This document shows, piece after piece, positions 6,074 through 11,225 of a DNA stretch of 34,551 bases. The notes beneath the pieces are model-generated. The model had not been told where the DNA came from, searched no databases, and saw nothing but the letters and a program-made list of their open reading frames with translations. Position 1 is the first letter of the stretch. Each line of letters opens with the position of its first letter. Origin of the DNA: an uncultured archaeon (GTDB taxonomy: Archaea; Asgardarchaeota; Thorarchaeia; Thorarchaeales; Thorarchaeaceae); NCBI GenBank assembly GCA_964590575.1, contig CAZPWM010000024.1, positions 1 to 34,551 of the forward strand, read 5' to 3'. Position numbers and translations under genes: made by a program.

Positions 6074-7273
6074 TTACCAGAGCTGGTACTGTCTCTTGAC
6101 AAAACCTTCCCAGACTCTGGGAAGCTTGGCAATGACTTCCTCTGTGATAGACTCTACTGAGGCCTTCACCTTCTCTACGTCGCACTCTCCATAGAGCTCG
6201 ACGTTGATAGCCTTTGGCTCAATGATAGGTGCACCAATCTGACTCACCAGATAGCAGTATACTTGGGAAAGGTCTGGGTGTTCCTTGTAGACTCTCTCAG
6301 TGATTTCTCTGGCTGCGACATTGTATGTCTTGCCTACATGTGACACAGGGTTCTTGCCAGCAGCAGCTTCGAGTGTCATTGGTCTGTATGGAGTAATAAG
6401 ACCATTTGCACGGTTACCCCTGCCTACCTGACCATCGTCCCCGTGTTCTGCAGATGTTCCAGTTACTGTTAAGTAGAATAGATTATCCTTCGGACTGTCT
6501 GCGGTATTGACACTGACTTCAGTTTCCATATCAGTGATCTTGGCCGCGTGGTCTTTCACAAGATCGGTGATTCCCTGCATGACACTTGCGTACTCATCCT
6601 TGTCCTTTGTTTCGCTGGAGATGATAGCTGCAGCGACTTGCATGTGGATTTTGTCATCTATTCGGGTCCCCATGATCTTGATATCCTCACCTATCTGAGG
6701 CCATTGCTTCTTCACTTTCTCGCTGTTCAAGAGTTGCTCTGATTCGAGAGTGATCAACTCAGTAGGTGAGAAAGGCGCGTAGCCAACACCAAAGCTAGTA
6801 TCGTTAGCTCGTGGGATACCGGTCTCCAGATCGAAGTTACCAACGAGGTCGGTGCTACCTGCTCGTATCTTGTAATCAATGATAACGTCTGAGTGAACAT
6901 CAAGATGTGGGAGATCTTTACTCAACCACTCTTTTGTGTGTTGGACTGCAAATTTTCCAACTGGTACTTGGCGCTCGTAGTCTTTGTCAACAAGATCAAC
7001 AGCTCGCCCGCTCATCAAAATGTAAATTGGTTCAATAACATCGCCGCCTCCAAACCTGGAGTTGGATTGTCCCCCAACGAGAAGGACCTTGTCCACATTG
7101 TGGTGCTGAACTTGACCAAAAATCTCCATGTAGTATTCGCTCAAGCGAACTGACAGTTCCTCTGCCGCTTTATCGCAAAGGGTATCGGGATGACCTTTTC
7201 CTTTTCTTTCGACAATCTCAACGGGGAGTTTGTCAACCGAAGGTCCGGCTCCGCGTGTGACTTTCAAATTCAT
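6074..7273 (-). CDS. mat: S-adenosylmethionine synthetase, archaeal type
   Basis: VEIVERKGKGHPDTLCD, HHNVDK, ANDTSFGVGYAP, GEDIKIMG, TVTGTSAEHGDDGQVGRGNR, GKNPVSHVGK; 399 aa. Confidence 0.97.
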   Translation of the reverse strand: MNLKVTRGAGPSVDKLPVEIVERKGKGHPDTLCDKAAEELSVRLSEYYMEIFGQVQHHNVDKVLLVGGQSNSRFGGGDVIEPIYILMSGRAVDLVDKDYERQVPVGKFAVQHTKEWLSKDLPHLDVHSDVIIDYKIRAGSTDLVGNFDLETGIPRANDTSFGVGYAPFSPTELITLESEQLLNSEKVKKQWPQIGEDIKIMGTRIDDKIHMQVAAAIISSETKDKDEYASVMQGITDLVKDHAAKITDMETEVSVNTADSPKDNLFYLTVTGTSAEHGDDGQVGRGNRANGLITPYRPMTLEAAAGKNPVSHVGKTYNVAAREITERVYKEHPDLSQVYCYLVSQIGAPIIEPKAINVELYGECDVEKVKASVESITEEVIAKLPRVWEGFVKRQYQLW

Positions 7274-7349
7274 AATAAATCAACTCGTCTTTTCCACCCG
7301 GCGCAGTGGTAAGTGTATAAAAGAATTACGTTATATCACGAAAAAATAC

Positions 7350-7374
7350 TTATGGAGAATAATATTTCTCATAA
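7350..7374. promoter_or_regulatory. Imperfect palindrome, candidate operator in the mat / HTH-CBS divergent promoter
   Basis: TTATGGAGAA-TAATAT-TTCTCATAA (arms match with one extra G) in an AT-rich 127-bp divergent intergenic region. Confidence 0.4.
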
Positions 7375-7400
7375 TATATTACTAATAGGAATAATAATTC

Positions 7401-7934
7401 ATGATTCTAACGACTGATGACTTAAGAAAACTGAGGCGTAGGTTTGGTCTGACACAAGCAGAACTTGCTATTGAGATAGGAGTATCGCAATCTTATATTG
7501 CTAGGCTAGAGAGAGGAACCATCGATCCAAAATTGTCCCTAGTGAAGAAGATAGTGGACAAGCTCACGAGAAAGACCGGGAAAACTTGTTCGGAGATAAT
7601 GACTGTTAACCCGAAAACAGTCGCTCCTCGAGATGTAGTTTCGACAGCAGTATCGTTGATGCAAAAAAATAACTATTCTCAACTTCCTGTCTTACGAGGG
7701 ACACAGGTAGTGGGTCTCATCACGGAATGGGACATCATTCAGAACTTACAACATAATCTCAACGAGATATCTGTTGAGGCTGTCATGAGTCCAAGCGGCA
7801 CACTCATGGTTGATGAGAATACTTCAGTGGATGTCATCGTTCCGCTCTTTGAAAACTATCAAGCAGTCCTTGTCCTGACTCAAGGACGTATTCAAGGAAT
7901 CATCACACGGTCGGACATATTCAAGCTGATTTGA
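7401..7934 (+). CDS. XRE-family HTH transcriptional regulator with a CBS-domain pair
   Basis: LRKLRRRFGLTQAELAIEIGVSQSYIARLERGTIDP (HTH_3), then CBS motifs YSQLPV...VVGLITE and GIITRSD. Confidence 0.93.
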   Translation: MILTTDDLRKLRRRFGLTQAELAIEIGVSQSYIARLERGTIDPKLSLVKKIVDKLTRKTGKTCSEIMTVNPKTVAPRDVVSTAVSLMQKNNYSQLPVLRGTQVVGLITEWDIIQNLQHNLNEISVEAVMSPSGTLMVDENTSVDVIVPLFENYQAVLVLTQGRIQGIITRSDIFKLI

Positions 7935-8104
7935 GCAACCAACAGGTATAATGCTCTTCGTCATGTGCTAGGTCGAAGAAGGGTAGATACAAGTGAAATG
8001 TTCTATAATGCAGAATCGCCAATGTTCTATTTCGAACATACCTGAGATTTGTGCCCCCGCAGAATGTCTTATATGGTATAAAAAGAAGAAACTGTTGGAA
8101 TATA

Positions 8105-8761
8105 ATGGCACACTACCTAGATACACTTGACGACCTCCGGGAGGGGCTCGATACCTTCGTGGAGAAGTGGGCTAATATACAAAGGAAGTCTGTGAAAGCC
8201 ATTCAAGCAGTCACTAATACAATCATGCAGATTGAGCACTTGGATGGACCTCTAGGTAAGCTTGAATCTTTTTCTAACATTCGCGAGGATGCAAAAGGAA
8301 TTCTTCTGGTCAATCTTTACGACAAGCTTGTACCAGCACTTGAAACCTCGATTAGAGAGTTTACAAAGCTTATGCACATGTTTGAAAACCTTCGTCACAC
8401 ATCCTCAAAGATACAGACCTTGACAGAAACTATGCGTGGTAACCTCCAGGACTCTCCTGAGCTTGAAGACTTGGTTGGATTCCTCGATTTGATTATGATT
8501 AGTGTGCGCGACATCTTGAACATGTATGAGTCAGAGTTCCTAGTTAAACTAACTATCTTCCGGGATTTTGAGGAAGGCGCAATCGAGATTGGTGTTGTCA
8601 GTAACTACTTGACAATCTGGGGTATTGAGCCAAATATCGAACCGCACGCAAGAGACAAGTTGCTCAAGGACCTTGATGAACATGTAGAACTTCTTAGAGA
8701 TGTCTTCGCTGGCAAGACTGGTATCAGAATTCCTGACACCTATAAGAAGATTCAACTCTGA
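8105..8761 (+). CDS. Helical-bundle protein resembling eukaryotic CINP / C1orf109
   Basis: 218 aa from the ATG at 8105 (the GTG at 8051 lies upstream of the TATA-like tract). C-terminal pattern MY..E..VK..I...YL..W..EP.IE matches CINP as recalled from memory. The CDS is likely real; the family call is tentative. Confidence 0.6.
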   Translation: MAHYLDTLDDLREGLDTFVEKWANIQRKSVKAIQAVTNTIMQIEHLDGPLGKLESFSNIREDAKGILLVNLYDKLVPALETSIREFTKLMHMFENLRHTSSKIQTLTETMRGNLQDSPELEDLVGFLDLIMISVRDILNMYESEFLVKLTIFRDFEEGAIEIGVVSNYLTIWGIEPNIEPHARDKLLKDLDEHVELLRDVFAGKTGIRIPDTYKKIQL

Positions 8762-9491: not shown

Positions 9492-11225
9492 CTATTCAGA
9501 ATCGGATTTTATCACACGTTCATGCATTTGCATTCGATTCTGATTCTCTTCCAAATCCGCTTCAATCTCATTTCGTAAGTCTTGATAGGCGCCCTCAGGT
9601 AATCTTCCTGATTCGAAATCTTTCTGATAGAATATTAGTTTCTCTTTCAGAAGTTCCTGTCGTATAGAGAGTTCTTTAATTCTTGCGCGTCTTTCAGATA
9701 CTACCCTTCTAAGTTCATCTTCAAGGGTGAATATTTCTTCTTCTAGTTCTGCCTTCATTCGATTGTATGTTTCAAGTTCTACATTCCCCTCTGTGTACAA
9801 ATCAACAAGGCGTAGAAGCGCCTGTCGAGTTGCGTTTCTATGAGCAGTGATTTCACGTGCTCGATCTTCTTTTTCTATTAATCCAAGAGCCTTCGCAAAG
9901 TATGGTGTTGTGAGACCCTTGACTGTAAGACTTACTAATAGCATAATTGAAACAATAGAATAAATTGTCGGACCTATGATATGAGCATTCTCAACGAGAA
10001 TGAACGTGCCTGGATTAAATGGGTCTTCATGAGGAGTTACAATAGCAGTAACAGCAATAGCTGCAAGGGCCGCATTTGTGACACCTTTTACACCTGCCCA
10101 GCTCAGGAAGAGTCTATCCTTCAGATTCACTGACCGGTCAAAAGAGGTGACGAGGAGAACTGATGCAGGTCTAGCTACAAAAATAATGAGAAAAGCAGTT
10201 ATTAGACCAAGTATGATGATTGTGGGATTATTCACGATAAAGGCAATGGTCATCGATTCAGGTTGATTGGCAATCAAAGGAACGCTGAGAGTGTAGCCTA
10301 AGAGTATGAATACACATATTTCAAACAAGAATGATACATTCTTCATGACTCCACGCATGGACCTCTGAGGAAGTGGAGGTAGTTTCATTCGTTTAAAATT
10401 CGCCATGAAGATTCCAGCAAAAACTGCAGCGAGAGCTCCTGGATGAACACCTAATCCGCTGAAGAGTTCTCCAAGCCCAAATGCGAGTACAGGCGTTGTA
10501 GCTGTGAGGATAGATACATTTGTGTCATCAGCTGCTCTCAAGATTGCCCAACCTACAACGCGGGCTACGAGAAAACCCAATAACACACCAAATCCCATGC
10601 TGCCAAGAAATTCTAAGATGACCATCTCAAATGGTTGGAAGAGCGCCGGGATGACCAGTGGTTCGAAGACAGTGATGACAAGTATGACCGCTGTCGCATC
10701 GTTGAATACAGCTTCACCTTCAAGGGTTGAGAACAACTTGCGCTTTACTCTTACTCCACCTGATTCAAGAACAGCAAAAAGAGCCGCGGGATCAGTGGGT
10801 GAGAGGATAGCTCCTATCAGGAGTGCAATGGCAAGCCCAATCTGGGTTGAGAGTTGAATAGTAAATCCAGCTATCAAAGATGTCGCTAGTACTCCAGCAG
10901 TAGCAAGTAAGAGCACGTTTCTAAGTGAAAGCCGAAGTTCCTTTAGATTCATATTCAAGCCTGCATAGAATAGAACACATGCTAGTGTCAACTGAGCTAT
11001 AAAGTCGAATCCAGCAATTTGTATTAGCTCCTCCCCAGGTCCCTGAATATTAAGAAGTACCTGACCAATAATGATACCAGCAACGACTAACGGTATTGGA
11101 TGTGGAATTCGATATCTTTCTGCAACCTTTGCTAGTGCAACGCCTAGAATCAAAAGAGCCGCAACAACGAGCAGTACGTTAGGTTCTAGACTCTCAGCAC
11201 CATTTTGTAGGAGCAAGAGGATCAA
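9492..11225 (-). CDS. Cation:proton antiporter, CPA1 (NhaP-type), with a coiled-coil C-terminal tail
   Basis: LIGAILSPTDPAA, LEGEAVFNDA, FVARP, SWAGVKG; about 13 TM helices plus a roughly 125-aa charged helical tail. TTG start overlaps the upstream TGA by 4 bp. Confidence 0.93.
   Translation of the reverse strand: MILLLLQNGAESLEPNVLLVVAALLILGVALAKVAERYRIPHPIPLVVAGIIIGQVLLNIQGPGEELIQIAGFDFIAQLTLACVLFYAGLNMNLKELRLSLRNVLLLATAGVLATSLIAGFTIQLSTQIGLAIALLIGAILSPTDPAALFAVLESGGVRVKRKLFSTLEGEAVFNDATAVILVITVFEPLVIPALFQPFEMVILEFLGSMGFGVLLGFLVARVVGWAILRAADDTNVSILTATTPVLAFGLGELFSGLGVHPGALAAVFAGIFMANFKRMKLPPLPQRSMRGVMKNVSFLFEICVFILLGYTLSVPLIANQPESMTIAFIVNNPTIIILGLITAFLIIFVARPASVLLVTSFDRSVNLKDRLFLSWAGVKGVTNAALAAIAVTAIVTPHEDPFNPGTFILVENAHIIGPTIYSIVSIMLLVSLTVKGLTTPYFAKALGLIEKEDRAREITAHRNATRQALLRLVDLYTEGNVELETYNRMKAELEEEIFTLEDELRRVVSERRARIKELSIRQELLKEKLIFYQKDFESGRLPEGAYQDLRNEIEADLEENQNRMQMHERVIKSDSE

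Follow-up and report, generated by a model that had tools for sequence, protein, structure and literature searches.

Does this Thorarchaeial locus encode a relative of CINP and C1orf109, the disease-linked partners of the SPATA5/SPATA5L1 ATPase, and, if so, might such a protein already have served a Cdc48-type unfoldase as an adaptor in an archaeal cell? The question is raised by an open reading frame on the forward strand of the window (the whole 34,551-nucleotide stretch of DNA analysed here), which spans positions 8105 to 8761, stop codon included. It runs from an ATG at 8105 to a stop codon at 8759-8761 and translates into a protein of 218 amino acids (P0001). A sequence-only reading of the DNA had described an all-helical, 218-residue protein at this position, similar in length to both CINP and C1orf109, and had proposed that it descends from a single pre-duplication ancestor of the two that acted as an adaptor of an archaeal Cdc48/VAT ATPase. 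The description is borne out: the translation and an AlphaFold2 model agree with it, as do the lengths, and the coding sequence is further supported by its homologues and by the profile match to CINP.

The list of open reading frames also contains a longer form of the gene with a GTG start at 8051 (236 amino acids). This start is unlikely, because the alignment with homologues begins at the ATG and because a TATA-like box, which recurs in three other Thor-type loci, sits between the two codons. Taken together, the homologue alignment and the position of the box favour ATG 8105 as the start; the leader would be very short, with transcription predicted to begin ~5-10 nt ahead of the ATG. The box itself (TTATAT, 8069-8074) lies 31-36 nt upstream of the ATG within a putative archaeal promoter on the forward strand (8060 to 8085), which comprises CAGAATG at 8060-8066, the TATA-like box and a second A/T-rich stretch. 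We infer this promoter from the sequence, and a CAGAATG..TTATA element could be aligned in four of the five Thor-type upstream regions compared, including that of the P0001 locus; a sigma-70 scan of the same region is not applicable to archaea. Two short contigs from the RNA libraries of two metatranscriptome studies fall inside the reading frame, one at 8144-8414 (271 nt with 5 differences) and the other at 8406-8638 (233 nt at 100% identity), and between 7300 and 9500 such matches were confined to the frame. They give a weak hint of transcription, as the libraries may contain DNA and the contigs do not reveal start, end or strand. P0001 is a real, conserved, single-copy gene of Thorarchaeota.

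The surroundings of the gene are conserved within lineages only. Upstream in the window (6074-7934) lie an archaeal-type SAM synthetase on the reverse strand and a regulator with HTH_3 and CBS-pair domains on the forward strand, which recur in 7/7 and 6/7 Thor-type loci, respectively, a case of order-wide synteny with no obvious functional link. On the other side, a Na+/H+ exchanger (9492-11225, reverse strand; PF00999, 167 bits) is extended at its C-terminus by ~100 aa that weakly match the CdvA-like coiled-coil domain (PF18822, 26.7 bits, cut-off 30), and four other Thor-type loci have exchanger-like genes (cluster c12) close to the CINP-like gene. The lineage-specific neighbours elsewhere include phosphoglucomutases, RtcA/HypF and unknowns, and across 21 loci no neighbour was shared between lineages. 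In genus g36 of family f11 (five loci, L039-L042 and L055), two conserved proteins border the CINP-like gene, one of 714-730 aa (divergent) and one of 467-505 aa (convergent), and neither of them has a Pfam match even at E<=0.01; as this arrangement is limited to a single genus, it says little.

The relation to CINP can be detected with the single sequence and becomes strong with family profiles. When 177,635 PDB sequences were searched with P0001 using phmmer, the top four matches were human CINP constructs (E 0.014-0.025), and the alignment paired the same C-terminal segments that the sequence-only reading had set side by side. A profile built from 18 Asgard sequences (A1) matched CINP at E 7.4e-10, aligning profile positions 7-184 with residues 5-181 of 196, and its runner-up in the PDB was a designed coiled coil at E 0.005. 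A profile made without Thor sequences (A3) gave E 7.4e-11 for CINP. With either profile the E-value gap between CINP and the runner-up amounted to seven orders of magnitude, and ~178/196 CINP residues were covered. As judged from these alignments, the resemblance of P0001 to CINP exceeds chance.

The positions that align are those that the Asgard family conserves. W22 in helix 1 (codon at 8168-8170, forward strand) is invariant in 18/18 and in 53/53 sequences and is paired by HMMER with a tryptophan of human CINP, in line with the N-terminal tryptophan match suggested at the outset. Two C-terminal motifs encoded on the same strand, MYESEFLVK in helix 3 (residues 140-148, 8522-8548) and YLTIWGIEP in helix 4 and the following turn (residues 168-176, 8606-8632), align with the matching segments of CINP. 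Among 53 family sequences W22, M140, E142 and P176 are invariant, and E144, K148, Y168, T170, W172 and E175 are at least 90% conserved, so that the MY..E..K and YL..W..P patterns, on whose conservation the sequence-only reading had staked the case beforehand, correspond to residues that are invariant or at least 90% conserved.

The predicted fold points in the same direction, with less power to discriminate. AlphaFold2 modelled P0001 as an all-helical protein with five main helices (mean pLDDT 89.3, pTM 0.83). With this model as the query, the first Foldseek matches were chains of four 55LCC/CINP entries, CINP and partner chains alike, and none of the matches reached E<=1e-3. VIA aligned the model with CINP at Z 15.8 (rmsd 3.3, 183/188 aligned), followed by designed bundles at 13.6. 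In a scan of 48,161 chains that was independent of Foldseek, CINP ranked first (Z 14.4) and 9gwj_C fourth (Z 13.4, 186 residues aligned, 12% identity); designed helical bundles scored 13.9, 13.6 and 13.3, and CINP and 9gwj_C were the best natural matches. From the entry titles and the known CINP chains, we infer that 9gwj_A/C, 8rhn_A/B and 9lgo_G/H correspond to C1orf109. For a second Asgard member of the family, P0139, the modelled structure placed C1orf109-type chains at Foldseek ranks 1-4, with CINP chains after them; the first nine matches were all 55LCC adaptor chains, one of them at 1.0e-3, and came before any unrelated protein.

Fold scores that are tied with those of designed bundles mean that structure alone would not prove kinship, and it is here that a generic four- or five-helix bundle, resembling CINP by chance or convergence, has to be weighed. 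Designed bundles do score like C1orf109 (Z 13.3-13.9), and the Foldseek search with P0001 returned nothing at E<=1e-3. CINP and C1orf109 are the best natural chains, with the designed bundles level with them. Against a chance likeness, however, stand the full-length profile matches to CINP at E 7e-10 to 7e-11 with their gap of seven orders to the runner-up, the coincidence of the positions shared with CINP and the invariant residues of the family, and the concordance of an independent Pfam model, PF15011 (CA109-like). This alternative is effectively refuted.

The PF15011 model provides the link to C1orf109. P0001 itself scores 23.2 bits (E 7e-5), residues 19-123 aligning with profile positions 13-112 of 161; this lies below the cut-off of 27, and so the score of P0001 by itself does not qualify it for strict membership in the Pfam family. 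Six of ten distant Asgard relatives exceed the cut-off (35.3-54.5 bits), the model matches 44/53 Asgard family members at E<=1e-3, and many database entries of P0001 homologues bear a precomputed PF15011 label. By transitivity, through homologues above the cut-off, P0001 can be placed in the PF15011 family on profile scores. In the ESM Atlas, 18 of the 30 nearest clusters were PF15011 clusters of eukaryotes, including one with the name C1orf109 homolog; without the PF15011 clusters the best score went down to 0.87 and no cluster was named CINP, which says little either way. Human C1orf109 was absent from the PDB matches of the Asgard profiles at E<=1 (A1) and at E<=10 (A3). The resemblance to C1orf109 proposed from the sequence thus holds at the level of the family, through the 44/53 members matched by PF15011 and through the fold matches. 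P0001 almost certainly belongs to the helical-bundle family of CINP and C1orf109/AIRIM (Pfam CA109-like), and the predicted folds and the sequence comparisons together show the Asgard family to be, as gauged by model and profile scores, about equally far from CINP and from C1orf109.

We then turn to where this family occurs. A first protein search found P0001 homologues in 145 clusters at E<=1e-3, of which the best 120 were 65-98% identical, those with names bearing Thorarchaeota-type labels; in another search the best 120 of 155 matches were all Thor-type. An exhaustive search of 1.84 billion representatives returned just 20 matches at E<=1e-3, and in it distant Asgard relatives matched P0001 at E 1e-19 to 7e-5. 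Ten distant full-length relatives that were looked up share 19-30% identity with P0001 and, where they have a name, are labelled as other Asgard archaea. Among the matches listed in the protein homologue searches, all had archaeal names or none, and eukaryotic CINP or C1orf109 did not appear.

Across 400 Asgard genomes, the family profile matched 130 and left 270 without the gene, with a patchy distribution by family; two of the 130 carriers rest on ~20-bit matches within long unrelated open reading frames. The gene is present in 79/85 genomes of f1, the family to which P0001 belongs, in 21/22 of f11, 17/19 of f14, 5/5 of f30, 2/2 of f12 and in the single genomes of f2 and f3 (1/1 each). It was found in 0/31 genomes of f8, 0/12 of f10, 0/12 of f13 and 0/14 of f21, and f22, the largest family, gave one weak match in 135 genomes.

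Carriers are essentially single-copy throughout the 400 genomes scanned. In the P0001 genome (91% complete), the family profile had one match and PF15011 hit the same open reading frame plus a 13.7-bit noise match only, so that neither model revealed a second adaptor paralogue that could be a heterodimer partner. All non-Thor carriers have one match each, and where a second match exists, in six Thor-type genomes, it is a fragment at a contig end, part of a split open reading frame or a short partial duplicate; no solid second copy was seen among the 130 carrier genomes. Two Thor-type cases illustrate such irregularities. At G313:C1:1404635-1405339 the match falls in two pieces within one 270-aa frame, which suggests an insertion of ~30 aa, and at G362:C33:15509-15646 a 46-residue copy of the C-terminal part lies ~900 bp from the full gene.

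Since Asgard archaea have one copy where animals and plants have a CINP-type and a C1orf109-type protein, P0001 looks like the undivided form, and a single ancestor of both adaptors is a reasonable synthesis of the single-copy status and the equal distance to CINP and C1orf109. As to the pre-duplication ancestor put forward by the sequence-only reading, its homology to both proteins was right and the single copy in this genome and in essentially all carriers fits it; the ancestry itself remains at the strength of that synthesis. Alternatively, P0001 might be an orthologue of CINP only, if the split between CINP and C1orf109 predates the sampled Asgard lineages and a C1orf109-type copy was lost later. 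The Asgard profiles reach human CINP and not human C1orf109, which would suit this history, as would the published tree, in which, going by the passages concerned, the Asgard proteins figure as homologues of CINP and eukaryotes are sister to Hodarchaeales (PMC12962969). Yet Asgard members reach up to 54.5 bits with the Pfam model of C1orf109, Foldseek places C1orf109-type chains above CINP for P0139, and a second paralogue is lacking from the P0001 genome, as is a solid second copy from the 130 carriers, so that we regard orthology to CINP alone as quite improbable.

Candidate ATPases for such an adaptor are present in the genome. P0001 is encoded alongside two full Cdc48/VAT paralogues, P0186 (G000 C116:2142-4349) and P0187 (G000 C28:318-2507), which are 55% identical and both contain the N-domain fold; the genome also encodes PAN-like and Vps4-like single-ring ATPases. 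In the PDB, P0186 scores ~656 bits against p97 and 616 against SPATA5, and P0187 ~709 and 600, respectively. The relatively lower likeness of P0186 to p97 at which these scores hint was judged too weak for use. Both paralogues end in hydrophobic-Tyr-X tails (IYG and GYV), which we take to be of the proteasome-docking motif type. The D2 Walker A loop reads GPPGCGKT, with a cysteine, in P0186 and GPPGTGKT in P0187; a P-loop cysteine of SPATA5 is described as redox-regulated in the relevant passages of PMC12019325.

A stand-alone Cdc48 N-domain protein of 167 aa, P0188 (G000 C194:634-1137, L058), was considered as a partner and set aside, as its contig looks foreign. The contig is 2.5 kb long, and the best relatives of P0188 (57-66% identity) are stand-alone open reading frames of 171-196 aa in family f22, whereas P0188 matched nothing in the genus of P0001 (27 genomes) and gave only three weak matches in the family of P0001 (85 genomes). 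The contig is probably contamination, and free-standing Cdc48 N-domain proteins seem to be common in f22.

The claim that P0001 acts as a Cdc48/VAT adaptor gained no support from gene neighbourhood, co-distribution or a candidate substrate. None of 21 loci from eight families (the window plus 20 others) has an AAA+ neighbour of the CINP-like gene. Beyond the P0001 genome, the 15 genomes examined, of which 5 are carriers and 10 non-carriers, each encode 2-4 Cdc48-like genes, and in a tree of 40 such proteins from 16 genomes (6 carriers, 10 non-carriers) all three main clades mix both kinds; the carrier label required 13 changes, where shuffled labels needed 12.7 on average, and so showed no clustering beyond chance, and no Cdc48 paralogue specific to carriers emerged from this 16-genome tree, a quick LG+G4 search with midpoint rooting from which four fragments of <650 aa had been dropped. 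Finally, L24e in the 91%-complete P0001 genome is represented by a single PF01246 match, a 67-aa open frame, with no Rlp24-like paralogue. This single short L24e means that the genome has no Rlp24-like placeholder substrate.

One clade of Cdc48-like paralogues from several Asgard families (L067, L068, L081, L083 and L098-L100) matches P0187 only from ~residue 139 onward, and the first ~140 residues of its members are therefore a different or very divergent N-domain. Carriers and non-carriers of the CINP-like gene both have members of this clade, but none turned up in the P0001 genome.

These results would also be compatible with binding to a general Cdc48/VAT, such binding being our interpretation of the homology; in the part of the literature consulted, yeast Drg1 is described as working without adaptors. 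They also suit a different account, in which P0001 is a member of the same family that works without an AAA+ ATPase and is instead a stand-alone helical scaffold for some other molecule, for instance rRNA, replication proteins or a GTPase of ribosome assembly, with recruitment to Cdc48-type ATPases having arisen in eukaryotes only. The absence of a neighbourhood tie to any AAA+ gene, of a Cdc48 paralogue that co-varies with the CINP-like gene and of an Rlp24-like L24e paralogue all favour such a scaffold, and human CINP itself is reported, in the passages of PMC12019325 on this point, to contact the pre-60S particle with GTPBP4 and ES27A, an example of partner binding apart from the ATPase. 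On the other hand, the animal and plant members described in the portions of the literature consulted were found bound to SPATA5/CDC48D-type ATPases, and the N-domain fold that such adaptors bind is present in both P0186 and P0187. We consider the scaffold possible but doubtful.

Our tentative preference, held at something short of even confidence, is for a conserved CINP/C1orf109-family protein that acts as an adaptor of Cdc48/VAT. P0001 has no catalytic motif and would, by homology, most likely be a non-enzymatic adaptor. It would dock on the N-domains of a Cdc48/VAT double-ring AAA+ unfoldase, here P0186 or P0187, and may there contribute to the recognition of a ribonucleoprotein, with a late precursor of the large ribosomal subunit as the most plausible substrate, in a manner similar to 55LCC or the plant OPENER complex. 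This mechanism, which draws on analogy with the eukaryotic complexes, is a possibility that we put forward with some reserve. The sequence-only reading had imagined a homo-oligomeric adaptor; a complex prediction for two copies of P0001 (alignment A2, no controls alongside) gave an ipSAE of 0.01 in both runs, the mark being 0.42, an outcome that speaks neither way on self-association.

Most of this picture is already in print. Koestlbacher et al. (Nat Microbiol 2026, PMC12962969; preprint 10.1101/2024.07.03.601958) report, in the passages on this family, that CINP has homologues in five major clades of Asgard archaea and in no other prokaryotes, with eukaryotes as sister to Hodarchaeales. Their CINPL, as described there, is the same protein family as P0001, which is thus an Asgard CINP-like protein already published, and the caution that such proteins might be known proved well placed. 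A Cell Rep 2022 paper (PMC9004343) describes CINP and C1orf109, in the section concerned, as related and structurally very similar. Going by these passages, the Asgard origin of the CINP family and the kinship of CINP and C1orf109 are already known. The passages on CINPL in PMC12962969 are silent on a C1orf109-family match, on the number of gene copies, on the genomic surroundings and on any ATPase partner, and beyond the papers cited here our searches, as far as main texts go, found none that links C1orf109 itself to archaea. What we add is modest: the Asgard family also fits the C1orf109 Pfam model, it is single-copy, and neither its genomic context nor its phyletic distribution ties it to a particular Cdc48 paralogue.

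In their sections on the adaptors, recent papers on 55LCC call these animal- or eumetazoan-specific or human-specific. An Asgard member that is about equally close to CINP and to C1orf109 places the origin of the family before eukaryotes. P0001 may further be an image of the common ancestor of the 55LCC and OPENER adaptors, one that already served as the lid of a Cdc48/VAT hexamer in archaea, acting in the proteostasis of the large ribosomal subunit or the replisome, although we hold this to be unlikely. If it were true, a module of adaptor and unfoldase would predate eukaryotes and would later have been subfunctionalised through duplication of both the adaptor and the ATPase. In any case P0001 provides a simple setting, with one gene only, in which to study the ancestral role of the adaptor.

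Among the known systems, the Arabidopsis OPENER complex is, in the parts of PMC12332008 that describe it, composed of OPNR and OAP1, the structural counterparts of C1orf109 and CINP, together with OAP2, CDC48D and CIP111, and its two Cdc48-type ATPases extract RPL24C from the pre-60S particle. Plant counterparts, as portrayed there, imply that the module is older than animals. Taking the likeness from that description, OPENER extracts RPL24C, whereas the P0001 archaeon has no L24e paralogue. In 55LCC (SPATA5-SPATA5L1-CINP-C1orf109), the SPATA5/SPATA5L1 hexamer has an N-terminal funnel whose inner wall is made up of CINP and C1orf109, according to the structural passages of PMC12019325 and PMC11055677. 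C1orf109/AIRIM resembles the Asgard family through PF15011, which matches Asgard members, and through a fold match at Z 13.4 over 186 aligned residues; the human C1orf109 sequence, unlike that of CINP, lies beyond the reach of the Asgard sequence profiles. Human CINP (PDB 8cih, 9gwj, 8rhn and 9lgo) works with a heterodimer partner, whereas the P0001 archaeon has no gene for one; it is only 16-19% identical to P0001, and in the A1 alignment it lacks E142 and E175, which are conserved in Asgard archaea, at the matching positions. It is nevertheless of similar length, matches the Asgard profile over nearly its full length, and shares with the Asgard family the helix-1 tryptophan and both C-terminal motifs.
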